From contig CAZKRU010000001.1 of assembly GCA_964555235.1 (NCBI GenBank), positions 7,915 to 71,914 on the forward strand: DNA of 64,000 nt, in the 5' to 3' direction. Origin of the DNA: an uncultured Verrucomicrobiota bacterium. GTDB taxonomy: Bacteria > Verrucomicrobiota > Verrucomicrobiia > Methylacidiphilales > CAMAQI01. Shown here piece after piece: positions 3,805 through 58,424 of the stretch; position 1 is the stretch's first letter, and every line of letters starts with the position of its first letter. The notes beneath the pieces were generated by a model. That model saw only the letters and a list, made by a program, of their open reading frames with translations, did no database searches and had not been told where the DNA came from. Both the position numbers and the translations under genes were made by a program.

Positions 3805-3876
3805 AGGAGGGATTATTCGATTTAAATTACCTGACGATCGTTGGGTTAGACAGCAAACAAAGAGTCAATTCGAAGC

Positions 3877-3913
3877 ATGATCACACGATAAATCTTAGCG
3901 TGTGATCTGTCAA
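3877..3913 (-). promoter_or_regulatory. Conserved promoter/operator-like motif upstream of array copy 2
   Basis: Coding strand reads TTGACA-gatcacacgctaagatt-TATCGT-gtgatcat: a -35 box, a 17-nt spacer and a TAnnnT -10-like box. A 9-bp inverted repeat GATCACACG (3879-3887) / CGTGTGATC (3899-3907) brackets the core. The motif lies 73 nt upstream of the ATG, and the same architecture recurs at 7323, 13984, 16551 and 17775. Confidence 0.5.
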
Positions 3914-3999
3914 ATTAAATTTCATCAGTCATCGAAAGAACTCTCTTTTCCCCCAACCCTTCGAACGTCAGTCCTTGAAGTCGTCGAGGTCAGATCTGT

Positions 4000-4605
4000 C
4001 TAAAATGCCTGCAAGTTTTTGACGAGAATCGTTACCGGCTCTCCAGGCTGATTCACAAACAAATGGATCGCACTCACGGTCGTCAGATCGAGCTCGTATT
4101 GAGCTGTTTTTTTGCCCTTTTTTTTGCCTCCCTCAAAGAGGACCTCGATCATTTTGGTATCCCCGGACTCAATTTGAACCGAACCGTTGATCCATTTCTT
4201 CTCATCGGGTTTGCCCGGATTATCAACCCGGATGGCCAACTTTACAGAACCTTGTCCGCTATTCGTAACCTCTGCACGAATGCCACGGAACGCGGACAAA
4301 TCCCAACTCCCCGTCTGGGGAGGAAAGTGGACATCAGGATATTTCTCACTGACCTTGAATTCGATTTTTACCGCTTTCTGGCCATTGGATTCCGCCAGAC
4401 TTACAGAGGATTCCCTTAATTTTAATCTTGAGAGGTCCGCCTCGCTTTCAATGGTGAAAAGCGACTTCGGCTCGAGCTTCGATTCCTCCGCCAAAGCCCC
4501 TCCGAAGTGGCTCATGAGGTAAAGAAATGCAATTACAGTGGCTTGGATCATCTTATTTTGAACGTGTGACATAAATCTCCTGGGCTGCTTTTCGTGAGGC
4601 TTCAA
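4000..4605 (-). CDS. Truncated array paralog: signal peptide + first CBM-like repeat only (stand-alone module or deletion remnant)
   Basis: 201-aa ORF, roughly 55-60% identical by eye to the N-terminus of 8550..11252. Its start (MSHVQNKMIQ...) overlaps the stop of 4553..7249, exactly as at the 11233/11252 junction. It ends ...LVKNLQAF*, where full-length copies continue. Confidence 0.6.
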   Translation of the reverse strand: MKPHEKQPRRFMSHVQNKMIQATVIAFLYLMSHFGGALAEESKLEPKSLFTIESEADLSRLKLRESSVSLAESNGQKAVKIEFKVSEKYPDVHFPPQTGSWDLSAFRGIRAEVTNSGQGSVKLAIRVDNPGKPDEKKWINGSVQIESGDTKMIEVLFEGGKKKGKKTAQYELDLTTVSAIHLFVNQPGEPVTILVKNLQAF

Positions 4606-7249
4606 TCATTTCAAGATAAGGAGTGTCTGTAACACTTAAAAAACCAACCCCATAGTTCTCGCCTTTGAGCGCGTTTCCGATTGCCGGTTGATCCAGCAGA
4701 CAAAACCAATGCACTCCAACAATCGAGGGATTGGATGCCGCTCCCATCACATACCGGGAAAACTTAACGGAACGGTCCACGGCGTTTTTTGCCCGTACAA
4801 GCCCGGGCCCGAAAACACCCCGGTCAGTTGCGCCAAAGTGGAACTCGCCGATCAGGATCGGCTTTTCAATTTCAACAAGAGGCTTCCAGGCTGCAATGGT
4901 TTCCCGATAGATGTTAAAGGATACCACATCGCAATACTCTGAGGCTATTTTTTCCACTTGTGCATTGTAATCGGCGAACCGACATCCCAGATAAAGTTTT
5001 TTGGGGGCAACCTCTTTAACCGCTTTGCTAACAACTTCAAAATACCGCCGGGCGATTTTGGCGTTAAATGCCCGCAAGTCTTTAATCCCCGCTTCCGTTT
5101 GGGGAATCTCCTTGTAGCTGATCATCGCTTCCCAATTCGACAGCTTGGAGCCCCAAGCCTGGTTCAATTTTTCAATCGTGCCGTAGCTGCTCTCCAAATA
5201 CTTCACGAACTCTACCTTGGCCGGATTGTCTTTGTTGCCGGCTAATGCCGCCTTGGCTTGGAAAGTGTCATCGCGCCAGGAGAGCTCATTATCGACAAAA
5301 TAGCCGATGCACATGGGATCATTCACGGAGTCCTTCGCAAACCGCTCCACCGCCTTTTTCACCTCCGCATCGAATTCTGGATTAAATGGATCCGGAATCG
5401 GATTGCGGGTATTTGCCTGCCATGGCAGGTTTTTAACTTGGAGGAATACCCAATCAGTATAAGGAATCCCCCCTTTTTTCAATACTTTGGGCTCGGACCA
5501 GTTTCCGATGGTATTAAAGCCCCAATTCATCAGCCGCCTGGGCATCAGATCCTCCCATACATTTTCATAATCCGACCCGTATTTCCTCTGAAGATTGGCT
5601 CCGTAAAAACTGAAGGTTCTCAGACTCATCCCCTTATAATCGCCATGCTTAATCCCGTTCTCCTTGGTTTTGCCCACGAACTTGCCAAACTCTTTTTCGT
5701 TTTTCCATGGCTCTTCGGAAAACCAGCCCTCCCTCCGATCGATGGGAGTGTGATTTTTCATTTGGACAACTGCCATCCCAAGGGAGAAAAAGAGCCGTCC
5801 CTCCGGATCCACCAAGTGCCATTTCCCATTGTGCTTTGCGGTATAAAAATGACCGGTCGCATTGAGCTGTGGTCCATCCGCCCATCCCCCATACCGATTC
5901 CAATTCGAAGGTCGCGGATTGGTATCAATATATTTTAATTCCGCTGTTTTCTCACGAATAAGATCACCATCCTCCTTAACCTTGCCCGGCCAATCCTGAT
6001 GGATATATTGCCCATAGCGATCAATGAACGGAAAAAAAGGCTCTGGAATAAACTCGCTCTTGGGATCAAAGACCCCCGTCGCCTTGATGCTGTGGACGGT
6101 GATATCATAAGGTCTGGAAGGGGTATTCAAAAACAGGCTGACCTGAACAACATTGGCAGGATCAATCATGGATCCCCGTTCGCTTCTCGGCCCCCATGGG
6201 GAAAAATACATCCCCTGAAGTTTTTCCCTCATTTCTTCTGCAAAATAACGATCGATCTCCACGGATGCAATTCCGCTTTCTCCAGGATCAAGACTGATCT
6301 TTCCCCCGTTGCTGTTGGCTCGACCGGTCGCATTGGGATTATCCACACGTACCGCAAGGGTGATGGACTCATTAGAATTGTTTGTTAATCCAAACTCGAC
6401 ATGAGTATAGGCCGCAAGATTCCAGGCCCCCTCGGGAGGCTTAAAGCTGATATTTGGATAGGGACTTTTGCATCCCATTTTCACACGTATTGCCTTAGCC
6501 CCATTGACATCGACGGCGTCAAATGTTGAATCGTTCGTCGAGATGAGGGATTTTGCATTGGCATCGGCAAAGTCCAATAGGAGAGGCTTTGTCCAAGGCT
6601 CATTTTTCACCACGGGCACAATCCCCATTTGCTCGGTCACTTCTGCTGCTGCAGGTTTGACCGCCGCTTCCCTAGGCGCACCAAAGGCCTGAATGCTCTT
6701 GACCATCAAGGAAACATCATTCTTGGGCTGGCTAATAAAAATATGAACTGCCGTCACTTCTGCAGGATTCAAAATATAGGTCGCTTTTTCTTTCCCTTTC
6801 TTGGATTTTTCAACTCCCGAAAAGGAGAGCTCGATCATTCGTGTTGTCCCCGGTTCTATTTCACCACCACCGGATATAAATTTCTTATCGGTTGAAGAGG
6901 CTCCCGGATTATCCGCGCGAATGGCGATCTTAACAGCCGCTTGTCCCGGGTTTATGATTTCCGCACGAATGCCGCCATAACCACTTAGATCCCATGTCCC
7001 AGACGGGGCTGAGAATTCAACGTCCGGATACTTCGGACTAGCTTTGAAATCAACCTTTAAGACTTTCTGTCCACCAGACACCGATAAGCTGACCGCCGAC
7101 TCCCGGGTTTTAACCTTTTTAACATCCTCTTCTCCCTCTAGCGCCACCAACGATTTTGTATTTAGCTCCGGCGTCGTTTCCTGAGCGGAGATCATTCCAG
7201 TAAAAAACGTGACAACCAAGAGCGAAAGAGCCATTGAGATTTGTTTCAT
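4553..7249 (-). CDS. Secreted glycoside hydrolase-like protein, array copy 3
   Basis: 898-aa ORF with signal peptide MKQISMALSLLVVTFFTGMISAQE. The domain order matches copy 2, with YFVDNELSW and LIGEFHFG motifs. Confidence 0.9.
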   Translation of the reverse strand: MKQISMALSLLVVTFFTGMISAQETTPELNTKSLVALEGEEDVKKVKTRESAVSLSVSGGQKVLKVDFKASPKYPDVEFSAPSGTWDLSGYGGIRAEIINPGQAAVKIAIRADNPGASSTDKKFISGGGEIEPGTTRMIELSFSGVEKSKKGKEKATYILNPAEVTAVHIFISQPKNDVSLMVKSIQAFGAPREAAVKPAAAEVTEQMGIVPVVKNEPWTKPLLLDFADANAKSLISTNDSTFDAVDVNGAKAIRVKMGCKSPYPNISFKPPEGAWNLAAYTHVEFGLTNNSNESITLAVRVDNPNATGRANSNGGKISLDPGESGIASVEIDRYFAEEMREKLQGMYFSPWGPRSERGSMIDPANVVQVSLFLNTPSRPYDITVHSIKATGVFDPKSEFIPEPFFPFIDRYGQYIHQDWPGKVKEDGDLIREKTAELKYIDTNPRPSNWNRYGGWADGPQLNATGHFYTAKHNGKWHLVDPEGRLFFSLGMAVVQMKNHTPIDRREGWFSEEPWKNEKEFGKFVGKTKENGIKHGDYKGMSLRTFSFYGANLQRKYGSDYENVWEDLMPRRLMNWGFNTIGNWSEPKVLKKGGIPYTDWVFLQVKNLPWQANTRNPIPDPFNPEFDAEVKKAVERFAKDSVNDPMCIGYFVDNELSWRDDTFQAKAALAGNKDNPAKVEFVKYLESSYGTIEKLNQAWGSKLSNWEAMISYKEIPQTEAGIKDLRAFNAKIARRYFEVVSKAVKEVAPKKLYLGCRFADYNAQVEKIASEYCDVVSFNIYRETIAAWKPLVEIEKPILIGEFHFGATDRGVFGPGLVRAKNAVDRSVKFSRYVMGAASNPSIVGVHWFCLLDQPAIGNALKGENYGVGFLSVTDTPYLEMIEASRKAAQEIYVTRSK

Positions 7250-7322
7250 AGGGGGGGATTATTCGATTTAAATTACCAGACGATCGTTGAGTTAGATAGC
7301 AAACAAAGAGTCAATTCTAAGC

Positions 7323-7359
7323 ATGATCACACGATAAATCTTAGCGTGTGATCTGTCAA
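7323..7359 (-). promoter_or_regulatory. Conserved promoter/operator-like motif upstream of array copy 3
   Basis: Contains GATCACACG (7325-7333), CGTGTGATC (7345-7353) and the reverse complement of TTGACA (7354-7359). The surrounding ~135 bp (7250-7383) nearly duplicate 3805-3940. The motif lies 74 nt upstream of the ATG. Confidence 0.5.
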
Positions 7360-7493
7360 ATTAAATTTCATCAGTCATCGAAAGTCCCCACTGCTTTCCA
7401 GAAAAATCAACCCAGCCCAAACCCAAAAAGAAATAACGCCGACTTTTTCAGTAGAATCGAATCGTTAGATACGTCCCCATCGCCCGTAGCGCG

Positions 7494-8267
7494 CTAGCGC
7501 GTGTGCCGTAACAGCCAAGTGTAGAGTTCCGGGTTTGCGTAGGTCTCGGTCCACGAATTGTGATTTGCCTCGGGATAGACGGTGAGCTGCACGTCGGTCA
7601 CGGCGACTCTTTTCAGCTCCTTGACCATAAGTTCCGATTCTTCGAGCGGGACCTTCGTATCCTTGGCGCCGTGGAAGGCCCAAACGCCCAGACTCGTTAG
7701 GGCGGATTTGTGTCTATTGCGGACAATATCGAGACGCTGACCCCCACCGCAGATTGGGACGACAGCCCCGAAACGCTCGGGGTACTTCATGGCGACGCTC
7801 CATGTGCCGTAGCCGCCCATGCTGAGACCCGTGAGGTAGATTCGGTGCGGGTCGACTTTGTGCTTCGCGGCGATTTCGTCCGCGAGCACCAGCACGCCGT
7901 CGTCGTCCCACCAAGCGTCTGCGGGGCACTGCGGCGAAACGACGATGAAATTCTCCGCGAGCGCCTTGCCGGCGGCGGACAGCGGCGACTCTCGCAGGAG
8001 CTTCGGAGGCCCGTGCTTCGCGACGAGAGAAGGATCACTGCCACGTTCGCCAGCTCCGTGGAGAAATACGAGCAACGGCCACGTTTTGCTCCCGGTGGCC
8101 TCGTAGCCGGTCGGTAGCGAAAGCAGGTAGGTGTAGCCGACTTTCTTGGTGATCGTGCGCTCGAAGGAGGCGACCGGCTGCGACTCGGCGGCGGAGACCG
8201 CGAGCGCGCCGGCTAGGACAAGCAGAAATAATAGGGACGTATCCCGTTTAACTTTTGAGTTCTTCAT
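7494..8267 (-). CDS. Secreted alpha/beta-hydrolase (carboxylesterase/phospholipase-type, CE1-like)
   Basis: 257-aa ORF with a signal peptide and the motifs LVFLHGAGERG, GLSMGGYG (GxSxG), FHGAKDTKVP and ANHNSW. A GAGGGG Shine-Dalgarno-like element lies 4 nt upstream. Sampled 60-mers are 55-70% GC, against ~35-45% in neighbouring sequence. Confidence 0.85.
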   Translation of the reverse strand: MKNSKVKRDTSLLFLLVLAGALAVSAAESQPVASFERTITKKVGYTYLLSLPTGYEATGSKTWPLLVFLHGAGERGSDPSLVAKHGPPKLLRESPLSAAGKALAENFIVVSPQCPADAWWDDDGVLVLADEIAAKHKVDPHRIYLTGLSMGGYGTWSVAMKYPERFGAVVPICGGGQRLDIVRNRHKSALTSLGVWAFHGAKDTKVPLEESELMVKELKRVAVTDVQLTVYPEANHNSWTETYANPELYTWLLRHTR

Positions 8268-8509
8268 AAACCCCTCTTAACTTCGCTTCTTTCTTGATTC
8301 GTTTTCGAATGCGTTTCAGTGCTGCTGTCACCGCCCTTTCTCCGCTCATTCCACATCTTCGACTCATCTCTTCAAGCGTTTCTCCACTTCGGACACCGCT
8401 TTCTCCCACTCCCATCCTCTTTCCATCCCGCGCAAAGCCGTCTGCTCCTTCCGATTCCCTTTCGCTGCCTTTTTGACTCGCGCCGTAAATTCTTCTCCGC
8501 CGAGATAAC

Positions 8510-8569
8510 TCATGAGGAAAAAACGACCATTAAACTCGCTTGAACCATCTTATTTTGAGCGTATGACAT
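8510..8569 (-). pseudogene. 5' remnant of a further array paralog (about 20-25 codons)
   Basis: The reverse complement reads MSYAQNKMVQASLMVVFSS*, homologous to the MSNVQNKLIKASSMALLFLMGHLGG and MSHVQNKMIQATVIAFLYLMSHFGG starts. It overlaps the stop of 8550..11252 as in the other junctions. After a 1-nt frameshift the homology continues to ...LMSYLGG (~8496) and then ends. Confidence 0.55.
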
Positions 8570-11252
8570 AAATCTCCTGGGCTACTTTTCGTGAGGCTTC
8601 AATCATTTCCAGATAGGGAGTGTCCGTGACACTTAAAAAGCCGTAACCGTGATTTTCGCCTTCCAGAGTGCGTCCTGCCGCATTTTCATCCACCAACGCG
8701 AACCAATGAACACCAACAAAATTAGGATTCGCTGCGGCTCCCCTGACATAGCGGGAAAATTTTACCGCGCGATCCTCCGCATTCTTCGCCTGGACCAGCC
8801 CACCCCCGAAAACACCGCGATCTGTGGAACCAAAATGAAACTCACCAACCATGCAGGGCTTGTCAATTTCAACTGGAGGTTTCCAAGCGGCGATGGTGTC
8901 CCGATAGATATTAAACGAAACCACATCGCAGTATTCAGCGGCGATTTTTACCACTTGCTCATTGTGGTCGGCAAAACGGCACCCCAAATAGAGTTTTTTA
9001 GGGGCAACCTCTTTTACAGCTTTTCTAACACCTTCAAAATACTGCCGGGCAATCATGGCGTTGAATGCTCTCAAGTCTTTAATTCCTGCTTCCGATTGGG
9101 GGATCTCCTTGTAGCTGATCATTTCCTCCCATTTCGACAGTTTGGATCCCCAAGCCTGATTCAGTTTTTCAATCGCTCCGTAGTTTCCCTCGAGATACTT
9201 GACGAACTCGACCTTCACGTAATTGTCTTTGTTGCCGGCCAGCGCCGCCTTGGCTTGAAAAGTATCATCCCGCCAGGACAATTCATTATCAACAAAATAG
9301 CCAATACACATCGGATCATTGATCGAGTCTTTTGTGAATCGAAGAGTTGCCTTTTTTACCTCTCCAACAAATTCTGGATGAAATGGATCAGGAATCGGAT
9401 TGCGGGTATTTGCCTGCCAGGGCAGATTCTTGCACTGCAGAAATACCCAATCGGTATAAGGAATTAGGCCCTTATGGATAATTTTGGGCTCAGACCAATT
9501 TCCAATGGTGTTAAAACCCCAGTTCATCAGTCGCTTAGGCATCAAACTTTCCCAAACATTTTCCCAGTCATTCCCGTATTTCCTCTGAAGGTTGGCACTG
9601 TAAAAACTGAACGTTCTGAGTTTCATTCCCTTGTATTCTCCGTGTTTGATCCCACGTTCATCCGTCGTCGTGATGAACTGACTGAACTCTTTTTCATTTT
9701 TCCAGGGCTCATCTGCAAACCAGCCCTCCCGGCGATCGATTGGAGTGGCAATGCCCTTTAATTTCACGACGTCCATTCCTAGCGAAAAAAAGAGTTTCCC
9801 CTCGGGATCAACCAAGTGCCATTTATTGTTATGCTTTGCTGTATAAAAGGAGCCGGTCGCATTAAGTTGGGGACCCTCAGCCCATCCTCCATAACGATTC
9901 CAGTTAGAGGGACGTGGATTGGAATCAATATACTTTAGTTCCGCCTCTTTTTCACGGGCGATGTCGCCGTCCGTTTTCACCTTACCTGGCCAATCCTGGT
10001 GGATGTATTGTCCGTATTTGTCAATAAATGGAAAAAAGGGCTCTGGGATCACCTCGCCCTTGGGATCAAAGGAACCAGTGGGTTTGATGCTATGGATGGT
10101 GATATCATAAGCTCTCGCCGGGTGGCTAAGAAAAAAGCTTACTTCAATAATATTACTCGGGTCAATCATAGCTCCATGGTTTCCTCTCCCCCCCCAGGGA
10201 GTTTTATGCATCCCCTCGAGTTTCTTCCTCAGATTTTCAGCAAAATAGCGATCCATCTCAATGGATACGATTCCGCTCTCTCCCGGATCAAGACTGATTT
10301 TCCCATTGTTCCTGTTGGATTTACCCGTGGCATTGGGATTATCCACTGTGGCCAACAGCTGGATGGATTCATTCGTATTGTTGGTTAATGCAAACTCAAC
10401 ATGTGTATAGGCCGAAAGATTCCAAGCGCCAGAAGGGGCTTTGAAAACTATATTGGGATAAGGGCTCTTAAATCCCGTCTTTACCCTCACCGCCTTGGCT
10501 CCGTTGATATCAGCAATTTCAAAGACAGAGTCATTGGTTGTGATGAGCGATCTCACATCAGGAGAGGAAAAATCAACCAGCAGAGGCTTTGTCCATGGCT
10601 CATTTTTGACGGTCGACACTGCCGACTTCCGCTCTTCATCCTGAGTTGCCGCTGCCGCCACTGAATTAGCGGTTCCCCCCGCAGGGACTCCGAATGCCTG
10701 AATATTTTTCACGATGAGCACCCCATCCTCTTTCGGTTGAGTGAGAAAAACGTGAATCGCAATAATCGCGGTACGATCGAGCGGATATTGAACTTGCTTC
10801 CCTTTGCTCTCACCAAAAACCACTTCGAAAACTCGCGTTTCACCAGGAGCCAGCGTATCACCTCCCACGATCCATTTTTTCTCTGCAGGAGTTCCTTGAT
10901 TATCAACACGAAGCGAAATCTTTTCCAGGTTTTTTCCCGCATTCGTAATCTCCGTACGAATCCCCGCGTATCCACTTAAATCCCAAGTCCCCGAAGGAGG
11001 TGAAAACTGAACATCGGGATATTTCTGACTTGCCTTAAAATCGATCTTTAAACACTTTTGTCCTCCCACTTCAGAAAGACTGACGTTGGCTTCGCGCGGC
11101 TTTAGTTTTGAGAGATCTGCATCACTTTCCATGTTAAACAGAGATTTCGGCTCGGGTTTCGTCTCCACCGCAAAAGCTCCTCCGAGGTGACCCATGAGGA
11201 AAAGAAGGGCCATTGAACTCGCTTTAATCAGCTTATTTTGAACGTTTGACAT
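8550..11252 (-). CDS. Secreted glycoside hydrolase-like protein, array copy 4
   Basis: 900-aa ORF with the same architecture, including YFVDNELSW and MVGEFHFG motifs. Its start overlaps the stop of 11233..13923 by 20 nt, which suggests an operon. Confidence 0.9.
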   Translation of the reverse strand: MSNVQNKLIKASSMALLFLMGHLGGAFAVETKPEPKSLFNMESDADLSKLKPREANVSLSEVGGQKCLKIDFKASQKYPDVQFSPPSGTWDLSGYAGIRTEITNAGKNLEKISLRVDNQGTPAEKKWIVGGDTLAPGETRVFEVVFGESKGKQVQYPLDRTAIIAIHVFLTQPKEDGVLIVKNIQAFGVPAGGTANSVAAAATQDEERKSAVSTVKNEPWTKPLLVDFSSPDVRSLITTNDSVFEIADINGAKAVRVKTGFKSPYPNIVFKAPSGAWNLSAYTHVEFALTNNTNESIQLLATVDNPNATGKSNRNNGKISLDPGESGIVSIEMDRYFAENLRKKLEGMHKTPWGGRGNHGAMIDPSNIIEVSFFLSHPARAYDITIHSIKPTGSFDPKGEVIPEPFFPFIDKYGQYIHQDWPGKVKTDGDIAREKEAELKYIDSNPRPSNWNRYGGWAEGPQLNATGSFYTAKHNNKWHLVDPEGKLFFSLGMDVVKLKGIATPIDRREGWFADEPWKNEKEFSQFITTTDERGIKHGEYKGMKLRTFSFYSANLQRKYGNDWENVWESLMPKRLMNWGFNTIGNWSEPKIIHKGLIPYTDWVFLQCKNLPWQANTRNPIPDPFHPEFVGEVKKATLRFTKDSINDPMCIGYFVDNELSWRDDTFQAKAALAGNKDNYVKVEFVKYLEGNYGAIEKLNQAWGSKLSKWEEMISYKEIPQSEAGIKDLRAFNAMIARQYFEGVRKAVKEVAPKKLYLGCRFADHNEQVVKIAAEYCDVVSFNIYRDTIAAWKPPVEIDKPCMVGEFHFGSTDRGVFGGGLVQAKNAEDRAVKFSRYVRGAAANPNFVGVHWFALVDENAAGRTLEGENHGYGFLSVTDTPYLEMIEASRKVAQEIYVIRSK

Positions 11253-13923
11253 AAATCTCCTGGGCTAATTTTCGAGAGGCCTCCACCATTTCAAGATAGG
11301 GCGTATCCGTAATACTTAAAAAACCGAAACCGTAATTTTCACAATCACTGACTCGACCCGACGTGGGCTCATCCACCAAAGCAAACCAATGCGCCCCCAC
11401 GATCAGAGGATTTGACGCCGCTCCCGTCACGTAGCGCGCAAACTTCACGGCACGATCCGCGGCATCTTTTGCTTTAGCAAGACCTGGCCCGAAAACCCCT
11501 CGATCTGTGGCACCAAAATGAAACTCTCCGATTATCACTGGCTTATCAATCTCAGCGACCGGCTTCCATCCGGCAACCGTGTCGCGGTAGATGTTGAATG
11601 AAACGACATCACAGTACTCGGCCGAAATCTTAACCACCTGGGCATTGTGATCGGCAAAGCGACAGCCCAGATATAGCTTCTTGGGAGCGACTTCTTTCAT
11701 CACCTTACTGACAATCTCGAAATATTTCCGGGCGATTTTTGCATTAAAATCTCTCAAATCCTTGACCGCCGCATCCGTGGTTGGAATCTCTTTGGCTCCG
11801 AGCATTTTTTCCCATTGGGAATACGATGTTCCCCATGCCGCATTTAATTTTTCGATCTTGCCGTAGCTCGCCTGAAGTTCCTTGATCAGCTCTACTTTGA
11901 CCGGTTTTGAAGCGTCACCCACCATGGCTGCCTTCGCCTGAAACGTGTCATCGCGCCAAGAAAGTTCGTTATCAACAAAGTACCCGATACAGAATGGATC
12001 CTCGAGACTTTCACTGGTGAATTGAACCGCATTTTTTCTGATTTCTTCCTCAAATGTCGGATGAAACGGATCCGCGATGGGATTACGGGTATTCGCCTGC
12101 CATGGAAGGCTTGGCGAACGATGAAAGACCCAATGAGTGTAAGGAATTCCCCCTTTTTTCAGAATTTTCGGATCAGACCAATTTCCAATCGTATTAAAAC
12201 CCCAATTCATGAGCCGTTTGGGCATCAGGTCGCACCAAGTGTTCTCCCAATCTGCCCCATATTTTCTTTGGAGATTGGCACCGAAAAAATTAAACGAACG
12301 GATCTTCTGCCCTTTATATTCTCCATGCTGAACCGCCGTTTCTTTAACCGTCGTCACTAATTCACTAAATCCCTTTTCATGCTCCCAAGGGGCATCCGCA
12401 AACCATCCATCTCTATGATCAATTGGCGTCCCATTCTTCGTCTGCACCACATCAATCCCCATGGAAAAGAATAAACGACCTTCGGGGTCGACAAGGTGCC
12501 ACTTTCCTTCGTGCTTCGCCGTGTAGAAATGTCCGGTCGCTTTCAATTGCGGGCCATCCGCCCAACCTCCGTAACGATTCCAGCTCGAAGGGCGAGGATT
12601 CGTATTGATATATTTTAATTCAAGTGCTTTCTCACGAGCAAAATCGTCGTTCGACTTCACCTTCCCCAGCCAATCCTTGTGAATGTATTGTCCGTAACGA
12701 TCAATGAAGGGGAAAAAGGGCTCGGGAATGACCTGAGTGGATGCATCAAAAGCGCCCACCGCTTTAATGCTGTTGACCGTGAATTCGTAAGGCTTTGCAG
12801 GAGTATTTAAAAAGAGACTGACTTGCACGATATTCGAAGGATCAATCATCGGGCCGTATTGAGAACGAACGCCCCACGGGGTGTAGCGCATTCCGGCGAG
12901 CTTCTCTCTCAATTTCTCAGCAAAGTAACGATTGAAGGTAACCGTGAGTGTTCCACTCTCACCCGGATCGAGACTCAGCTTCCCTCCATTGGAGTTGGAT
13001 TTTCCTGTGGCTCCCGGATTATCGACTCGTCCATTTATCTGAAGCGACTCTTGGCTCTTGTTCGTAATACCAATCTCAATTTGATTGTAAGCTTCGAGAT
13101 TCCAACTGCCATTCGCTGCGTTGAACGCGACGTTCGGAAAAGGCTTCGCGAAGCCGGTCGTGACCCGAAGCGCCTTCTGACCATTCACCTCAATAAATTC
13201 CTGCTTTGAATCGAGACCGGTAATGCGAGAGATGGCATCAGGTTCAGCGAAATTAAAGAGCTCAGGTTTCGTCCAAGGCTCATTTTTTACGGTCGGCCCC
13301 ACTGCGGCACCCGTCCCCTTAGGCTCGGAAGCCGCTTTGACAATCGGCGCCCCCTTCTCTGCGGTGGAACCTCCGAATGCCTGAATACTTTTCACGATGA
13401 GCACCCCATCCTCTTTCGGTTGAGCGAGAAAAACGTGAATCGCAATAATCGCCGCACGGTCGAGGGCATATTGAGCTTGCTTCCCTTTGCTCTCACCAAA
13501 AATCACTTCGAAAACTCGCGTTTCTCCAGGAGCCAGCTTATCACCTCCCGTGATCCATTTTTTCTCAGCAGGAGTCCCTTGATTATCAACACGAATCGAA
13601 ATTTTTTCCAGGTTTTTGCCCGCATTCGTAATCTCCGCACGGATCCCGGCGTATCCGCTTAAATCCCAAGTCCCGGAAGGAGGCGAAAACTGAACATCGG
13701 GGTACTTCTCACTTGCCTTAAAATCGATCTTTAAATATTTTTGTCCACTCCCTTCAGAAAGACTGACACTGGCTTCACGCGGCTTTAATTTTGAGAGATC
13801 CGTATCACTTTCAACCGCGAAAAGAGATTTAATGTTGCCTTCGGGTTTCCCCTCCTGCGCTGAAACTTGAATGTCATATCCTCCCAAGAGAAGGAGTGAG
13901 AAGAGTAAGGATTTTAATTTCAT
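11233..13923 (-). CDS. Secreted glycoside hydrolase-like protein, array copy 5
   Basis: 896-aa ORF with signal peptide MKLKSLLFSLLLLGG. The first CBM-like repeat is ~88% identical to that of copy 4, while the rest is ~60-65% identical. YFVDNELSW and IIGEFHFG motifs are present. Confidence 0.9.
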   Translation of the reverse strand: MKLKSLLFSLLLLGGYDIQVSAQEGKPEGNIKSLFAVESDTDLSKLKPREASVSLSEGSGQKYLKIDFKASEKYPDVQFSPPSGTWDLSGYAGIRAEITNAGKNLEKISIRVDNQGTPAEKKWITGGDKLAPGETRVFEVIFGESKGKQAQYALDRAAIIAIHVFLAQPKEDGVLIVKSIQAFGGSTAEKGAPIVKAASEPKGTGAAVGPTVKNEPWTKPELFNFAEPDAISRITGLDSKQEFIEVNGQKALRVTTGFAKPFPNVAFNAANGSWNLEAYNQIEIGITNKSQESLQINGRVDNPGATGKSNSNGGKLSLDPGESGTLTVTFNRYFAEKLREKLAGMRYTPWGVRSQYGPMIDPSNIVQVSLFLNTPAKPYEFTVNSIKAVGAFDASTQVIPEPFFPFIDRYGQYIHKDWLGKVKSNDDFAREKALELKYINTNPRPSSWNRYGGWADGPQLKATGHFYTAKHEGKWHLVDPEGRLFFSMGIDVVQTKNGTPIDHRDGWFADAPWEHEKGFSELVTTVKETAVQHGEYKGQKIRSFNFFGANLQRKYGADWENTWCDLMPKRLMNWGFNTIGNWSDPKILKKGGIPYTHWVFHRSPSLPWQANTRNPIADPFHPTFEEEIRKNAVQFTSESLEDPFCIGYFVDNELSWRDDTFQAKAAMVGDASKPVKVELIKELQASYGKIEKLNAAWGTSYSQWEKMLGAKEIPTTDAAVKDLRDFNAKIARKYFEIVSKVMKEVAPKKLYLGCRFADHNAQVVKISAEYCDVVSFNIYRDTVAGWKPVAEIDKPVIIGEFHFGATDRGVFGPGLAKAKDAADRAVKFARYVTGAASNPLIVGAHWFALVDEPTSGRVSDCENYGFGFLSITDTPYLEMVEASRKLAQEIYVKRSK

Positions 13924-13983
13924 TGGGAGGGATTCTGTTAAGTGTTGGTAGATCGAAAAGCCATTTACTCTGCAAATTGGATT

Positions 13984-14020
13984 ATGATTACACGTTAAAT
14001 CTTTAAATGTGATCTGTCAA
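13984..14020 (-). promoter_or_regulatory. Conserved promoter/operator-like motif upstream of copy 5/copy 4 operon
   Basis: Coding strand reads TTGACA-gatcacatttaaagatt-TAACGT-gtaatcat, 61 nt upstream of the ATG at 13923. Confidence 0.5.
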
Positions 14021-14164
14021 ATCGAACGATTGGAAACTTCAAAGAATCTTTTTTGAATCGGAAAAGTGCACGTGGTTCTCGCTCCATCCTGACCTGACAC
14101 TGATGCGCCCGTGATTCTAATCATAGAGGAAGTTCTCAATCCTCCCCGATTCGATGTAAGATAG

Positions 14165-16492: not shown

Positions 16493-16550
16493 CGTTCCTA
16501 TCTCCTTTTATTATTTCAACTGACTTTTTACTTTCAATTCCGATAAATGA

Positions 16551-16584
16551 ATGATCACAGGTTAAATCATTTAATCGTTCAAAG
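16551..16584 (-). promoter_or_regulatory. Conserved promoter-like motif upstream of S8 protease gene
   Basis: Coding strand reads ...gattaaatGATTTAACCTGTGATCAT, 59 nt upstream of the ATG at 16492. It shares the GATTTAACnTGTGATC core with the 17775 site and overlaps the 3' end of the SGNH gene. Confidence 0.4.
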
Positions 16585-17670: not shown

Positions 17671-17774
17671 AGGATTTGGATTGAGTTCTAATTTATCGAA
17701 CTGTTTTTCTGATGATTGCCCCTCGAACTTGCGGACAGATTTCCCTCATGAGCTTCAATAAAGGTAAATTCATA

Positions 17775-17811
17775 ACGATCACAGGTTAAATCATTAAATA
17801 ATCTTCGTCAA
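17775..17811 (-). promoter_or_regulatory. Conserved promoter-like motif upstream of SGNH hydrolase gene
   Basis: Coding strand reads TTGACG-aagattatttaatgatt-TAACCT-gtgatcgt, 105 nt upstream of the ATG at 17670. Confidence 0.45.
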
Positions 17812-17850
17812 CACTAAAATATTGTAATTGTGATTTATTTTTAAAATGTG

Positions 17851-18156
17851 GATACCCCTTTCTGGATTAGCGACACGTGAGGCCCAGGCGGCATATCACC
17901 GGGTATCTTAAAGCTTCCGAGCGACGATCTTAACTTGGGAAACGCAAAGTACGATTTCTCCGGAAGTGTGGTTAATGAGTATTTTTAAAGCTACGCTCGA
18001 CGATATAGGCCGGCGGAAGGGATGCTCAAAGAGTTCCTTCATGAACTTCCCGTCAGGGGCCGATTGCTCTCAAGGCGGCGAATGCTGCCGCCATGGCAAT
18101 CGCTGTCACCGCAAGAGAACGGTACGAGATTGAGTCCGCCACTAAGGGGGCTCAAG
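17851..18156. other. Structured non-coding segment of unknown identity (possible ncRNA or decayed element end)
   Basis: No convincing ORF. Nested stems include GATACCC 17851-57 / GGGTATC 17901-07, CGATTGC 18061-67 / GCAATCG 18096-102 and an inner GGCGGC 18074-79 / GCCGCC 18087-92. The segment abuts the 42-bp arm-like repeat. Confidence 0.25.
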
Positions 18157-18198
18157 AAATTCCAAAAACGATCCCCCGTACTGGCAATTCTACTGGCA
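18157..18198. repeat. 42-bp repeat shared with the integrase-proximal arm of the island (contains TACTGGCA-N4-TACTGGCA)
   Basis: aaattccaaaaacgatcccccgtactggcaattctactggca matches 58136-58177 at 40/42 positions. The flanks are unrelated on both sides. Confidence 0.65.
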
Positions 18199-18261
18199 CG
18201 AGCCCGATACCGTAGGAGTTACAAAAAATCATTATTTCCGTCAGCACCATAAGTTCAGATA

Positions 18262-18870
18262 TCAACTCTTCAAGCCTTCACTAATCGTTTTTGCTCGAAA
18301 ATAAAGTGCATCATTACCAATGGCTCGCATCCACTCAAGCGCTTTGGATATTTCTGAAGTAGTCGCATCCAGCGCAATCAAGTCTTGGACGTGACGCCGC
18401 CCCTTTTGTCCCTCACAAGCCGCATACAATTTCAAACTGATTAGATCCTGACGACTGGCAAAACATATCGTTAAACAAGGGCCATAATCGACCCTCTTTG
18501 CTCGAAATTGAATTCCCTCGGGAAGCGGCAAATCCAAAAGCGACATCGCTTGATGATTCACCCAATCGGACTGGGCGTTCAAATCCCGGGCAGTTTCCGT
18601 GACAAGATGACAAAAACCTTCAGGCAACGGATTGCGTGTGATTTCCCCTTGATCAAGAACCGCGATAACATCCACATCACGGGTCGTCCTTGAAATTCCA
18701 TGTTGAAGAATCAAATCCGCACCACCCACCACCAGTAATGAAAGCGGAGAATGATCCACAAGTGCCATCTTTCGACCCAAACGAATCAGGAGAGCCTCGA
18801 TCTCCTCCCTGGAATGAACCTCCCGCATTGACTCAAACCCGTTCCACAGGCTTGAACGAACCATCAACAT
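18262..18870 (-). CDS. Nucleotidyltransferase-fold protein (AbiEii/DUF6036-like), cassette copy A
   Basis: 202 aa with the polymerase-beta NTase signature LLVVGGADLILQHGISRTTRDVDVIAV (hGG...DxD). The downstream SRQDLISLKLYA...HVQDLIAL region resembles AbiEii/DUF6036-type NTases. The likelier start is M15 (18828), 4 nt after the stop of the upstream ORF. Confidence 0.75.
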   Translation of the reverse strand: MLMVRSSLWNGFESMREVHSREEIEALLIRLGRKMALVDHSPLSLLVVGGADLILQHGISRTTRDVDVIAVLDQGEITRNPLPEGFCHLVTETARDLNAQSDWVNHQAMSLLDLPLPEGIQFRAKRVDYGPCLTICFASRQDLISLKLYAACEGQKGRRHVQDLIALDATTSEISKALEWMRAIGNDALYFRAKTISEGLKS

Positions 18871-19072
18871 CCCAATGTTTTTCTTGCTTCATACGCACCT
18901 GTCGAGTAGGCGCCTCAGGAAACCGCTTGGGATTTGGAAAATCATTAAGGGCAATCACCCAAAAAGCAGAGGACTGGCGATCCCACAATCCAATATGGGA
19001 ATTGCGCCCTTCCCCTCGATACCAAACTCCATCCTCCAGAGCTTCCATCGAAAAATATGTCTCGGTTGCCAT
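18833..19072 (-). CDS. Small protein of unknown function coupled to NTase gene, copy A
   Basis: 79-aa ORF (MATETYFSMEALEDGVWYRGEGRNSHIGLWD...) tightly coupled to the downstream NTase gene. Both cassette copies are identical at nucleotide level. No family is recognisable by eye. Confidence 0.6.
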   Translation of the reverse strand: MATETYFSMEALEDGVWYRGEGRNSHIGLWDRQSSAFWVIALNDFPNPKRFPEAPTRQVRMKQEKHWDVDGSFKPVERV

Positions 19073-19466
19073 ACTCAGACTCTAACATAGCCTTTGAGAA
19101 GTGTCGAGCCGATCAAAAACATCTTCAACCCAATCGATTATACGTCTGCCGAAGTGCCAAAGTCTCTTTCTGGTAACTCCGGGAGTTTCATTTTGAACGC
19201 ACGAAAGGTGATTTTCGGTGAGAAGCATACTGCCACACGTGAGATCCGCATTCCGAAAATAACCTTCACGGATGAAGATTAAGATAAAATTCGCCCGCCC
19301 GATTATTTTAAATCCAAGTCGATTTTTGGCCTTTGAAAGCCATTTTCAGAAGAAAATCCATTGATCATAGCGATTTTCACGGACCCCTTCCTTATTCAAA
19401 ATAAGGTCGGCGCGATCTAAGATTTGTTATGGCTTTTGTTATGACTTTTCTATTTTTAGAGACTCA

Positions 19467-19484
19467 AAATGACGCAAGTCATTT
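19467..19484 (-). terminator. Hairpin that may be the displaced original tRNA-Cys terminator
   Basis: On the minus strand, directly after the tRNA-3'-end repeat, the sequence reads TTTTTTATTTAC-AAATGAC-TTGC-GTCATTT-TGAG. The stem is 7 bp and the T-run is weak. Confidence 0.35.
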
Positions 19485-19496
19485 GTAAATAAAAAA

Positions 19497-19516
19497 AGGC
19501 GGGAGCCGGAATCGAA
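19497..19516. repeat. Distal att-like direct repeat (copy of tRNA-Cys 3' end)
   Basis: aggcgggagccggaatcgaa is identical (20/20) to 58221-58240, i.e. the T-loop through the discriminator of the tRNA. Identity stops at 19517. Confidence 0.75.
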
Positions 19517-19609: not shown

Positions 19610-19629
19610 TACTGGCAAATTTACTGGCA
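19610..19629. repeat. TACTGGCA-N4-TACTGGCA arm-like site at distal island end
   Basis: tactggcaaatttactggca lies 94 bp inside the distal att repeat. Related copies are at 18179-18198 and 58158-58177. Confidence 0.55.
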
Positions 19630-19692
19630 CGAACCCGATGCCGCAGGAGTTACGAAAAATTATTATTCCAGTCATCACCATAAGTTCAGAGA

Positions 19693-20301
19693 TCAACTCT
19701 TCAAGCCTTCACTAATCGCTTTTGCTCGAGAATAAAGCGCATCATTACCAATGACCCGTATCCACTTAAGTGCCTCGGATATTTCCGAAGTAGTCGCATC
19801 CAGCGCAATCAAGTCTTGGACATGACGCCGCCCCTTTTGTCCCTCGCAAGCTGCATACAATTTCAAACTGATGAGATCCTGACGACTGGCAAAACATATC
19901 GTTAAACAAGGACCATAATCGACCCTCTTTGCTCGAAGTTGAATTCCCTCAGGAAGCGGCAAATCCAAAAGCGGCATCGCTTGATGATTCACCCAATCGG
20001 ACTGGGCGTTCAAATCCCGGGCCGTTTCCGTAACCAGATGGCAAAAACCTTCAGGCAGCGGATTGCGTGTGATTTCCCCCTGATCAAGAACCGCAACAAC
20101 ATCCACATCACGGGTCGTCCTTGAAATTCCATGTTGAAGAATCAAATCCGCACCACCCACCACCAGTAATGAAAGCGGAGAATGATCCACAAGTGCCATC
20201 TTTCGACCCAAACGAATCAGGAGAGCCTCGATCTCCTCCCTGGAATGAACCTCCCGCATTGACTCAAACCCGTTCCACAGGCTTGAACGAACCATCAACA
20301 T
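19693..20301 (-). CDS. Nucleotidyltransferase-fold protein (AbiEii/DUF6036-like), cassette copy B
   Basis: 202 aa with 9 substitutions relative to copy A, all from residue 69 onward. The hGG...DxD signature is the same. Confidence 0.75.
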   Translation of the reverse strand: MLMVRSSLWNGFESMREVHSREEIEALLIRLGRKMALVDHSPLSLLVVGGADLILQHGISRTTRDVDVVAVLDQGEITRNPLPEGFCHLVTETARDLNAQSDWVNHQAMPLLDLPLPEGIQLRAKRVDYGPCLTICFASRQDLISLKLYAACEGQKGRRHVQDLIALDATTSEISEALKWIRVIGNDALYSRAKAISEGLKS

Positions 20302-20503
20302 CCCAATGTTTTTCTTGCTTCATACGCACCTGTCGAGTAGGCGCCTCAGGAAACCGCTTGGGATTTGGAAAATCATTAAGGGCAATCACCCAAAAAGCAG
20401 AGGACTGGCGATCCCACAATCCAATATGGGAATTGCGCCCTTCCCCTCGATACCAAACTCCATCCTCCAGAGCTTCCATCGAAAAATATGTCTCGGTTGC
20501 CAT
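20264..20503 (-). CDS. Small protein of unknown function coupled to NTase gene, copy B
   Basis: 79 aa, identical to 18833..19072. Confidence 0.6.
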   Translation of the reverse strand: MATETYFSMEALEDGVWYRGEGRNSHIGLWDRQSSAFWVIALNDFPNPKRFPEAPTRQVRMKQEKHWDVDGSFKPVERV

Positions 20504-20790
20504 ACTCGAACTCTAGCATAGCCTTTGAGAAGTGTCGAGCCGATCAAAAACATCTTCAAGTCAGTGTGGATATGATCCGGCGAGTGCTGAAAGGCCTTCA
20601 AAAAGAAAAATCCGTGATCTGCATCGAAAAAGGACAGCAGGCTAAATGGAAAAAGGCCAATTAGGTAATGAATTGGGTAATGAGCAAGAAGAATCCCGAG
20701 CCTTTAAGGATTTTTCGACTGAAGGATTGATTTTGATTTAACGGAATGCCCGAGAAACATTTGACGAGGGGAGATCTCATCCATCACAAT

Positions 20791-21927: not shown

Positions 21928-22614
21928 CTAGCCAACCGCTAATTCTTGTAATCGATCGAGGACCATCGGAATCCGATTTTGATTGCCGGGCCCCGCCGGA
22001 AAATGTCCCGGCAGAGCTTCACGAAAAGCATTGTTCTTCAACAAAATTGAAAATTCCGCCGCCAAATAGAGCCTTAAATCGGCGGGACCTTGACGGACTT
22101 CGGCAACAATTCCTGAGCGACCATCGACAACAGCCAAGAGATCTTCCAGATCATGACTGGCAAAATAGTCTCCCTCGCCGCGATCTTTGAACGCCTCCAG
22201 TTTTGTCGCCAGAAAGTATTTCGCTTCAATAATTGGAGCCATTTGGTCCGGGCTCACCTGTTTATTTGAAGCACTTGCCAATGCTTCCCGAAACCAGCGA
22301 GACCGTAATCCCAAAACAGTGGAATCAATCGGCATCACATCCACTTTGCAATTTTCGATCAGGTAACGGCAAATCGGAGCCCCTTCAGAAGTGTCGTTCA
22401 CGAAGCCATCCCTCCTCAATCGCGATTCAAGTTTGGCGTAGCTCGCCTGCGTTGTGACTTCGACAATTGCATCCACATCTTTGGTTGGACGAATCTCGTG
22501 CAGTTCCGGATGATCCATCAGCAACGGAACAATGCTACCACCCAAAAAGCCATGAGGAACCTCGAGCCGTTGCAAACGGCGGGTAACAATGGCAATGGAT
22601 TCAACCGGACTCAT
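21928..22614 (-). CDS. Nucleotidyltransferase-fold protein, AbiEii-like toxin candidate
   Basis: 228 aa with the NTase motif FLGGSIVPLL...RPTKDVDAIVEV and KLEAFKDRGEGDYFASHDLEDLL near the C-terminus. A 4-nt ATGA overlap links it to the upstream gene. Confidence 0.8.
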   Translation of the reverse strand: MSPVESIAIVTRRLQRLEVPHGFLGGSIVPLLMDHPELHEIRPTKDVDAIVEVTTQASYAKLESRLRRDGFVNDTSEGAPICRYLIENCKVDVMPIDSTVLGLRSRWFREALASASNKQVSPDQMAPIIEAKYFLATKLEAFKDRGEGDYFASHDLEDLLAVVDGRSGIVAEVRQGPADLRLYLAAEFSILLKNNAFREALPGHFPAGPGNQNRIPMVLDRLQELAVG

Positions 22615-23162
22615 TCAGACACCGTCTGGGCTTCTCCTAACGATTCCAATCGTTGGCGCAATTCCGAAGCAGCCATGTTCCGTTCACGCGCTCGACCCTC
22701 CCTCAAGGCATCCACTAAGGCCAATAATTCATAAAGCTTTGAATCTCGACGGGCGGCATAAGGTACATTCGAGAAGAGCGGTTCCAAGGCATAACCACGA
22801 ACCTTGCCTTCCGCATCAGGCCAAACAGGGGACAGATCTTTTCCTTTCTCTTGCTGAAGCTGGTCACATAAGGGTGGAGCGGCATAGGAGGTCGGCATTC
22901 CTCGGGTGGGAGCGCCACGACGCGCCGGGAAAGCATATTTGACCCCGTGAAGTAGATATTCGAGGAGCGCACTGACTCGAGGCCTTTTTGCCTTTAAATC
23001 AAACAACCCGGCCTCAGAAGCCCTGCGGCTAGCTCCATGAACTTCTCCCACGCTCATTCCCAATTCTCCTGCCATTTCGGCATAGGTTCGCAACGTGGGC
23101 ATCGAGAGCCACTTGAGCAGAACTACCACATCTTGAGATTTCGCAGTCACACTTATATTCAT
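22611..23162 (-). CDS. Winged-HTH-like partner protein, AbiEi-like antitoxin/regulator candidate
   Basis: 183 aa. The N-terminal segment TYAEMAGELGMSVGEVHGASRRASEAGL looks like an HTH. The gene is translationally coupled to the NTase gene. Confidence 0.65.
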   Translation of the reverse strand: MNISVTAKSQDVVVLLKWLSMPTLRTYAEMAGELGMSVGEVHGASRRASEAGLFDLKAKRPRVSALLEYLLHGVKYAFPARRGAPTRGMPTSYAAPPLCDQLQQEKGKDLSPVWPDAEGKVRGYALEPLFSNVPYAARRDSKLYELLALVDALREGRARERNMAASELRQRLESLGEAQTVSE

Positions 23163-56634: not shown

Positions 56635-56964
56635 ATGTCAAAACAGTACGAAATTGAAGCCCACACCTTATTGACGGCGCAGCGATTGCCTGCCCAGCTT
56701 TATGCAAAAGAAGCCGCGTTTTTTCTTCGCATTAGTCCGGAAGATCTGAATCATCTTGCTGTAAATAAACTCATCAAACCGGTTGGGAAACCGACTCCGA
56801 ATGCGCCAAAGTACTATCTGACACAGGAAGTTCTCAGTAAATCCAACGATTCTGAATGGATGAATAAAATGAACGTCTTTTTAAGTAAACACCGTAGAGA
56901 CAAGAATCTCAAATATCGGAAAGACGAGCCCCAAGACGTAACTTCCGCAGAGCTTCCTCAATAG
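56635..56964 (+). CDS. Excisionase/AlpA-like HTH DNA-binding protein
   Basis: 109 aa. LYAKEAAFFLRISPEDLNHLAVNKLIKPVG resembles HTH_17/excisionase-type motifs. The gene is convergent with and abuts the integrase gene. Confidence 0.6.
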   Translation: MSKQYEIEAHTLLTAQRLPAQLYAKEAAFFLRISPEDLNHLAVNKLIKPVGKPTPNAPKYYLTQEVLSKSNDSEWMNKMNVFLSKHRRDKNLKYRKDEPQDVTSAELPQ

Positions 56965-58060: not shown

Positions 58061-58135
58061 AAGCTAGAGCGATCACAGAAAAGCCCTTCATGGCTTCTGG
58101 CCGGTTAAACGCCGTTTGTGGGTGGTTTTATGGAA

Positions 58136-58177
58136 AAATTCCAAAACCGATCCCACGTACTGGCAATTCTACTGGCA
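58136..58177. repeat. 42-bp arm-like repeat between integrase gene and tRNA (contains TACTGGCA-N4-TACTGGCA)
   Basis: aaattccaaaaccgatcccacgtactggcaattctactggca matches 18157-18198 at 40/42 positions. Confidence 0.65.
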
Positions 58178-58220
58178 AACCAGCTCTTGGGGGCCATTTT
58201 TCCCTCTGGATCAGAGGGAG

Positions 58221-58292
58221 AGGCGGGAGCCGGAATCGAACCGGCGCATAGGGCTTTTGCAGAGCCCGGCCTTACCACTTGGCAATCCCGCC
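58221..58292 (-). tRNA. tRNA-Cys (anticodon GCA)
   Basis: The reverse complement is GGCGGGATTGCCAAGTGGTAAGGCCGGGCTCTGCAAAAGCCCTATGCGCCGGTTCGATTCCGGCTCCCGCC plus discriminator T. It has a 7-bp acceptor stem, anticodon loop CTGCAAA and T-loop TTCGATT. CCA is not encoded. Confidence 0.9.
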
Positions 58293-58424
58293 GTGAAAAG
58301 GGAGCGACAGATTCTCCTGATCCTTGAATTCTGGCAAGTCAGAAATCATATAATTCACTTGTCACGTGTTTGACATCTAATTGAAACAATTCACCATTAC
58401 AAAGCAATCTTAGGAGAAAAAATT

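Follow-up and report, generated by a model that had tools for sequence, protein, structure and literature searches.

A 64,000-nucleotide stretch of contig CAZKRU010000001.1 from an uncultured Verrucomicrobiota bacterium (the whole stretch analysed, hereafter the window) holds a 38.7-kb genomic island inserted at a tRNA-Cys gene, and comparison of the island ends with those of related islands indicates that two short direct-repeat pairs of the form TACTGGCA-N4-TACTGGCA, at 58158 and 19610, are probably arm-type sites of the island's lambda-type tyrosine integrase (Int). A third copy of the pair, outside the island at 18157-18198, is best read as an orphan arm module, presumably left over from islands that occupied this tRNA-Cys gene earlier or in tandem. 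An earlier note on this DNA had put forward the copies as candidate integrase arm sites, and the proposal is supported by the presence of pairs on both sides of the core, by a structural model of the integrase that resembles lambda Int, and by the retention of the same architecture in relatives.

A search of the window allowing up to two mismatches returned the 20-mer TACTGGCAAnTnTACTGGCA only at 18179-18198, 19610-19629 and 58158-58177, all on the plus strand, in agreement with the positions and single orientation given in the earlier note; 100 dinucleotide-preserving shuffles yielded 0 matches. Each of the three copies consists of two 8-mers in the arrangement TACTGGCA-N4-TACTGGCA, and the 8-mer by itself occurs seven times in the window versus 0.66 expected, six of the seven being members of the three pairs. 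There are exactly two copies of the att core AGGCGGGAGCCGGAATCGAA, one at 19497-19516 (distal) and one at 58221-58240 (tRNA-proximal), and a third core is absent from the window at up to three mismatches. The proximal core is a 20-bp identity block that runs from the 3' end of the target gene, tRNA-Cys(GCA) (58220-58292, minus strand), through the T-loop inclusive, and contains the T-arm inverted repeat GCCGG-AATCGAA-CCGGC. The distal core represents the displaced tRNA 3' end and is followed by a T-run on the minus strand. With two att repeats and int adjoining the intact tRNA gene, the window therefore holds an island of 38.7 kb, showing the arrangement of a tRNA-targeting island: the tRNA 3' end is directly repeated at the two island ends, one of which keeps the intact tRNA gene with int beside it. 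The int-tRNA junction is identical in three independent assemblies, and Logan contigs encoding an identical integrase contain the known junction again and stop short of the far end of the island. A metagenome scan with a 19-nt core for attB, attP or sister islands returned 90 loci, all of them unrelated tRNA-Cys genes without a homologous integrase, and neither attB nor attP of the window island was among them.

The pair in the P arm (58158-58177) is found 116 bp upstream of the start of int (58042) and, read in the int orientation on the minus strand, has the form TTGCCAGTA-GAA-TTGCCAGTA with a 12-bp period; 43 bp lie between it and the proximal core, on the integrase side. In the P' arm the pair at 19610-19629, TACTGGCA-AATT-TACTGGCA on the plus strand, has the same orientation as the P-arm pair and is separated by 93 bp, on the island side, from the distal core. 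The distances of 94 and 44 bp inside the att repeats that had been noted earlier are thus correct. The sequence of the arm pairs is unrelated to that of the core, and no further degenerate copies of the pair were found near the 58158 or 19610 pairs.

The integrase gene (56966-58042, minus strand) encodes a protein of 358 residues, identical to P0001, with N-terminal, core-binding and catalytic domains; its open reading frame (ORF) spans 56966-58060, and the protein in public assemblies starts at 58042. The catalytic domain is matched by Pfam PF00589 (E 4e-5, below the gathering score) and by the PHROG_1 integrase family (5e-14), and the catalytic motif ...LHSYRY... is conserved in 34 homologues. 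An AlphaFold2 model based on the alignment of these homologues (predicted local distance difference test, pLDDT, 86) has an N-terminal domain of beta-beta-beta-alpha topology (strands 4-9, 14-19 and 25-27, helix 33-48; pLDDT 88-95), followed by a helical domain and then the catalytic domain. Foldseek matches of the model comprise lambda Int, Tn1549 Int and XerA (E 1e-9 to 1e-6), the top matches in the PDB being to full-length lambda Int (1z1g, 1z1b and 5j0n; E 2e-9 to 5e-8). The latter alignments span 342-359 columns and therefore include the N-terminal arm-binding domain, which in lambda-type integrases reads the arm sites. A profile of the first 64 residues, searched against 177,635 PDB sequences, gave as its sole match the arm-binding domain of lambda Int (1kjk/2wcc; weak, E 1.2), and for the N-terminal domain modelled alone (pLDDT 81) the top Foldseek match was 5j0n_F (44 columns, root-mean-square deviation 3.3 Å, 27% identity, probability 0.85, E 0.37). 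These weak matches agree with each other, and the integrase as modelled has a lambda-type arm-reading domain. The features of an arm-site system that can be computed, namely the catalytic domain, the N-terminal domain, a non-core motif on both arms, and an architecture conserved in homologous elements with a motif that co-varies with the integrase, were all found.

The integrase family is large (5,098 proteins at E <= 1e-10), the closest homologue being P0003 at 61% identity. The comparison covered about 17 related Verrucomicrobial islands, with integrases 43-61% identical to that of the window, including 14 loci taken from Verrucomicrobial metagenome-assembled genomes (integrases 43-53% identical). 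At most of the 14 loci a tRNA gene (Cys, Phe, Asn, Thr or Ala) ends ~190 bp upstream of int. Nearly all relatives harbor, in the spacer between tRNA and int, two direct repeats of 7-12 nt with a 12-bp period (once 11-bp), at distances of 45-75 bp to the end of the tRNA and 110-170 bp to the start of int. When only exact pairs of at least 7 nt with an 11-12-bp period are counted, 13 of 16 related loci have one in the zone 110-170 bp upstream of int, corresponding to 5.1 per kb in this zone versus 0.26 per kb elsewhere in the same loci.

The sequence of the repeat is clade-specific, for example TTGCCAGTG, TGTGTATG (L004-L006), ACTGTCAGA (L007), CTCCAGTA (L008 and L013), TTTCAGTG, GGGCACCAAAA, GAATCTTCACC (L229) and AAGTGTCCCT (L237). 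Other P-arm repeats are TTGCCAGTGAA (L001, L002 and L014), TT(T/C)CAGTG (L009-L011) and CGGGCACCAAAA (L012), and the loci of integrases P0094 and P0007 have two copies each of AGTGCCAGC and AACTGTCAGTA, respectively; the window repeat TTGCCAGTA is of the commonest type. Co-variation of the pair with the N-terminal region of the integrase is what the arm-site reading predicts. The integrases of L001 (4007-5068) and L014 (3992-5057) are mosaic, being 91% identical over residues 1-153 and 57% identical over residues 152-353, and the two loci share the same arm pair at different target tRNAs (Cys vs Ala); the pair therefore tracks the N-terminal part of the integrase and not the catalytic half or the target. 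In a test by prediction, P0027 and P0113, integrases with the L001-type N-terminal sequence, were both found to carry TGCCAGTG pairs. As a separate observation, L001 and L014 amount to a naturally occurring exchange of domains in which arm specificity and core specificity are uncoupled; the gene in L014 appears to be frameshifted.

In many relatives the att beside int is a partial tRNA end only, and the island is therefore the outer member of a tandem array. Beyond these partial cores, phased pairs or triplets of the same orientation are located 110-205 bp away: two copies of ACTGTCAGTGAA at L229 (~130 bp from the core), two to three copies of CGGACACCAA(AA) at L259/L262 and L265-L267 (~110-115 bp), and two copies of AGTGCCAGTGAA at L004/L006 and L254-L263 (~205 bp). 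These P'-side motifs match the P-arm motifs of other family members (L012, L014 and L001), and they occur by partial cores in unrelated islands with quite different cargo. The integrase of the island neighbouring that of L229 (L227) is 69% identical to the L014 integrase, and stacking at one core of islands with differing arm specificities is common in the family. Pairs on both sides of the core thus recur in tandem arrays of this integrase family.

Three arrangements at such partial cores deserve description in their own right. A conserved module upstream of a partial tRNA-Cys core is found in L004 (1300-1500), L006 (3660-3850) and L254 (9615-9840), consisting of two copies of AGTGCCAGTGAA, a TTGACA promoter-like box, and a decayed tRNA-like sequence that ends in the core and is called by ARAGORN as tRNA-Phe in L004 and not at all in L006 or L254; homology among these otherwise different contigs starts exactly at the pair. 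In L229 (9590-9640), the ACTGTCAGTGAA pair is preceded, 10 bp upstream, by a core-like stretch of 13 nt, CCGACCCTCGCCT, and followed ~130 bp downstream by the true partial core, an arrangement that could represent a core-pair-core scar, as would be left reciprocally by a deletion between two pairs. Lastly, L254-L263 share an identical integrase (P0094) and island start, with cargo including a TrwC relaxase, in different metagenomes, and this island has two different left neighbours, one ending in two copies of AGTGCCAGT and the other in three copies of CGGACACCAAAA, which suggests that the element is mobilisable and has repeatedly taken the outer position in tandem arrays.

In the excised circle of the window island, the two pairs would lie ~176 bp apart in a single attP of ~220 bp, in the order int, 22 bp, pair, 43 bp, core, 93 bp, pair, cargo. 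On each arm the two phased repeats of 8-9 bp would be contacted by the N-terminal domain of Int, whose core-binding and catalytic domains would work on the tRNA-Cys T-arm; by bridging the arm pairs and the core through these two DNA-binding specificities, Int would build the intasome and give integration and excision their direction. The extent of the identity block, from the T-loop to the tRNA 3' end, fits crossover in the T-loop, as known from tRNA-targeting integrases.

The third copy (18157-18198, minus strand) consists of a 22-bp flank of P-arm type and a pair, joined directly to a cassette. It is identical to 58136-58177 at 40 of 42 positions, a likeness that had been described before. 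Its 22-bp flank (18157-18178) matches the int-side flank of the P-arm pair (58136-58157) at 20 of 22 positions and the P' flank of the resident island at only ~11 of 22, and the flanks of the 58158 and 19610 pairs themselves are ~50% identical. In its spacer, ATTC, the third copy agrees with the 58158 copy, and in the bases that follow, CGA, with the 19610 copy, so that sequence of P-arm type gives way to sequence of cassette type within or just after the second TACTGGCA. Beyond the switch, the 18179 and 19610 copies continue into a shared cassette, as had been reported, the total shared length being 949 bp (18179-19127 vs 19610-20558).

Copy 2 of the cassette (19630-20558, minus strand) is the first cargo of the island and encodes a DUF6036 nucleotidyltransferase (19693-20301; Pfam DUF6036 E 1.6e-7, weak AbiEii match) and an overlapping 79-aa ORF (20264-20503), both on the minus strand; copy 1 (18199-19127, minus strand) lies outside the present island with both ORFs intact. 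The cassette family is rare (six relatives were found), and an exact look-up of the two 202-aa cassette proteins found neither on record. The copies are 92.3% identical over 18199-18668 (470 bp), show zero differences over the following 408 bp (18669-19076 vs 20100-20507), and differ at three positions thereafter, before similarity ends sharply at 19127/20558. Apart from the 408-bp tract, the 18.2-kb copy is 5-8% diverged from the live copies. The 408-bp tract indicates a recent gene conversion between the orphan and resident cassettes. Because 92.3% identity stands beside a 408-bp identical tract, copy 1 is not a fresh duplicate of copy 2; by its pattern of differences it is derived from a diverged relative and was later converted with the resident copy.

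To the left of 18157, neither an integrase remnant nor similarity to the region upstream of int was detected by tblastn, blastn-short, six-frame reading or local alignment against shuffles, and no core, even a degenerate one, was found within 500 bp. Cassette copy 1 is separated from the distal core by 369 bp (19128-19496) that are unique in the window and do not match the P arm of the island. They include a second possible orphan pair, TTTGTTATG-GCT-TTTGTTATG (19423-19443, 12-bp period), which lies outside the distal core at a distance of 53 bp. Only three pairs of at least 9 nt occur in the window, among them this one and the 58158 pair, which is also by an att core; the TTTGTTATG pair is found once in the window and in none of the 263 loci compared. 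It sits where the P-arm pair of a possible older neighbour island with another specificity would lie.

Several points weigh against assigning the pairs at 58158 and 19610 to Int. The matches of the N-terminal domain are individually non-significant (E 0.37 and 1.2), and Pfam offers no named arm-binding family for it, returning weak DUF6538 and AP2 matches only. Both ends of one island are seen in the window only. Since the pair and the 5' end of int are only ~120 bp apart, linkage alone could yield the co-variation between them. A one-residue recognition rule, in which TRKQ goes with CCAGT and TGxQ with GTCAGT, is contradicted by P0007, which has the TRKQ motif yet carries a TGTCAGT pair, and a simple residue-to-base rule therefore fails. 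The pairs might instead be sites of an island-encoded recombination directionality factor (RDF) or winged-helix regulator, possibly the product of a 109-aa ORF convergent with int (56635-56964, plus strand), that would stack head-to-tail on direct repeats spaced by one turn, bending the arm and/or controlling int transcription. Direct repeats with an 11-12-bp period are what the head-to-tail winged helix-turn-helix oligomers of RdfS and BldC use (PMC11963761), the P-arm pair stands 116 bp upstream of int, and the small ORF is conserved, with homologues in the same convergent position in L008, L010, L011, L227 and L228. We nevertheless consider an RDF an unlikely occupant of the pairs. The same pair is present on both arms, whereas the RDF sites of lambda, L5 and P2 are usually on one arm; pairs persist at loci in which a homologue of the 109-aa ORF is undetectable (L001, L002, L004, L006, L007 and L014); and the lambda-like N-terminal DNA-binding domain of the integrase itself needs a target. 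The ORF has no family or structure match in Pfam, PHROG, NCBIfam or PDB, and as an excisionase it stays a candidate by position only. Very improbable, in our judgement, is a role as operators or promoter elements of int, with the 19610 and 18179 copies as passive duplicates carried along with the cassette. The retention in relatives of a position 110-170 bp upstream of int would suit such a role, as would the fact that duplication of the cassette carries the pair along; however, a promoter and terminator scan of the P arm found neither, with no sigma-70-like promoter at 57950-58350, the pairs at 19610 and 18179 are sited downstream of convergent genes, with nothing there for an operator to control, and P'-side pairs by partial cores with different cargo would be unexpected for passive duplicates. 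Hardly credible, finally, is an origin of the three copies by chance or as a selfish short repeat without a role in recombination. A looser 15-base motif is indeed common in IMG/VR at about chance level (at least 119 matches), but 0 of these adjoin a homologous integrase, and the matches are therefore noise and not family. Moreover, 0 copies are expected in the window, all copies found are at island ends, and the architecture is conserved in ~17 related islands.

For the third copy, the suggestion in the earlier note that the 18.2-kb copy is a chimera of the two island ends without an att core is borne out by its P-type left and P'-type right flanks and by the lack of a core or int nearby, and the further suggestion that the junction records a past recombination or an older tandem element gains support from the joined P and P' flanks, the missing core, the divergence of the copy, and the frequency of tandem arrays in the family. 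The copy most likely arose by a deletion, through recombination or slippage, between a P pair and a P' pair, either of neighbouring elements or across an attP junction; such an event would remove the core and fuse the int-side flank to the cassette, and decay and gene conversion against the resident island would have followed. Across an attP, or across the junction of two tandem islands with one arm type, the two pairs are only 176 bp apart, and direct repeats that are short and so closely spaced readily undergo RecA-independent deletion. Lacking a core, 18157-18198 cannot itself recombine. Against this origin stands the absence of an integrase remnant or third core by the third copy, such that several events must be assumed; the simple order of a two-island tandem followed by one deletion was rejected because no int is present to the left of 18157 and 19128-19496 is not a P arm. 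In a less likely account, 18157-19127 did not arise by recombination and would be the true P' end of an older island with matching arm type; its P' flank would have chanced to resemble the present P-arm flank, and its core and remainder would have been lost. The succession of cassette then pair is the layout of the far end of the living island, the flank of the 19610 pair is still ~50% identical to the other two flanks and has A-tracts in common with them, and copy 1 of the cassette is diverged (92%), as would be the case for an older relative. The 22-bp flank, however, agrees far better with the P-arm flank (20/22) than with the resident P' flank (~11/22), and an older P' end would leave the lack of a degenerate core within 500 bp to the left to be accounted for. 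An orphan arm module therefore remains the best reading of 18157-18198, and, given the stray TTTGTTATG pair and an observed order that two islands and one deletion cannot produce, 17800-19496 is read as a graveyard of at least two earlier islands.

A more speculative proposal, to which we give little credence, is that pairs of arm sites are not only passive landing sites for protein but preferred breakpoints for island fusion, internal loss of cores, and swaps of cargo modules. Such a preference would explain the location of the 18157 junction inside the second 8-mer, the start of homology among L004, L006 and L254, and the scar-like arrangement in L229. If it were true that the integrase or a partner promotes such events, arm sites would be a second, unrecognised class of recombination sites driving island accretion.

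The attP of lambda offers the closest structural precedent. Both enzymes would be heterobivalent tyrosine recombinases, the window model being closest to full-length lambda Int including the N-terminal domain, and in both systems short non-core direct repeats are located on both arms (P1, P2 and P'1-P'3 in lambda) of an attP of comparable size (~240 bp in lambda, ~220 bp in the window). The window differs from lambda in having 2 + 2 sites, arranged as two phased pairs with a 12-bp period and a single orientation, in targeting the T-arm and 3' end of a tRNA gene, and in its integrase, which is only 16-17% identical to lambda Int. In the attP of mycobacteriophage L5, which has seven arm sites, and of phage P2, arm sites occur as adjacent, closely spaced pairs of direct repeats on each arm, and the paired arm repeats of the window are alike in this respect; L5 and P2 differ from the window in integrase subfamily and host.

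Among bacterial islands, ICEMlSymR7A, the Mesorhizobium symbiosis island with the integrase IntS, is likewise a large genomic island at a tRNA gene. Its 283-bp attP contains five arm-type motifs, all of which are needed for integration, and it has an RDF with effects at the arm nearest int and on the transcription of int (PMC11963761). It differs from the window in motif (TGKTGGTATC), number and layout of sites, and in that its RDF is known, whereas the window has a positional candidate only; moreover, the window integrase belongs to a separate, uncharacterised Verrucomicrobial clade. Tandem arrays formed by integrative and conjugative elements (ICEs) lack stability, yielding deletions and hybrids, and several islands can stack at one att site (PMC5812530). 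The window resembles SXT/R391 arrays, ICESt1/ICESt3 and cis-mobilizable elements (CIMEs) in having an int-less remnant beside a live island, and the abutting of neighbours' P' repeats on a partial core upstream of int in many contigs of the family is a further likeness to ICE arrays. Unlike a CIME, the remnant in the window does not have att cores on both sides, only two cores being present in 64 kb at up to three mismatches, and its junction lies at arm repeats and not at a core; because the second att core is missing, it is not a strict CIME.

The mechanism considered here is thus ordinary and of an already known kind, in a bacterial group that is little studied, and it leaves the current understanding of site-specific recombination unchanged. 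What differs is the minimal, regular attP layout (2 + 2 sites, 12-bp phase, one orientation) in an unstudied clade of Verrucomicrobial integrases. The analysis defines a candidate functional attP of the 38.7-kb island, ~220 bp long with 2 + 2 arm sites and crossover in the T-arm of tRNA-Cys, and the description extends to a large, uncharacterised Verrucomicrobial integrase family of more than 5,000 relatives at E <= 1e-10. Since the layout is simple and conserved and the repeat sequence varies among clades, the family is a convenient natural data set, from which the reading of DNA by arm-binding domains could be learned and the boundaries of islands in metagenome bins predicted. The orphan copies, in turn, point to the tRNA-Cys locus having hosted several islands in succession.

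Other features of the window include four tandem paralogous genes of ~897-900 aa at 1111-13923, with 60-90% DNA identity in blocks (repeat families D1-D9); a fifth copy apparently runs off the left end of the window. A conserved motif of 26-50 nt (...TGATCACAnGTTAAATC...) occurs at 3866-3915, 7312-7361, 13973-14022, 16550-16575 and 17774-17799, located 60-100 bp upstream of minus-strand genes that include the ~897-aa paralogues, an S8 protease and a GDSL esterase, and it is possibly a promoter element or regulator-binding site common to these genes. Near the cassette, at 21928-23162, two overlapping minus-strand genes (228 aa and 183 aa, 4-bp overlap) have no Pfam match, and their layout resembles that of another module of toxin-antitoxin or nucleotidyltransferase type.

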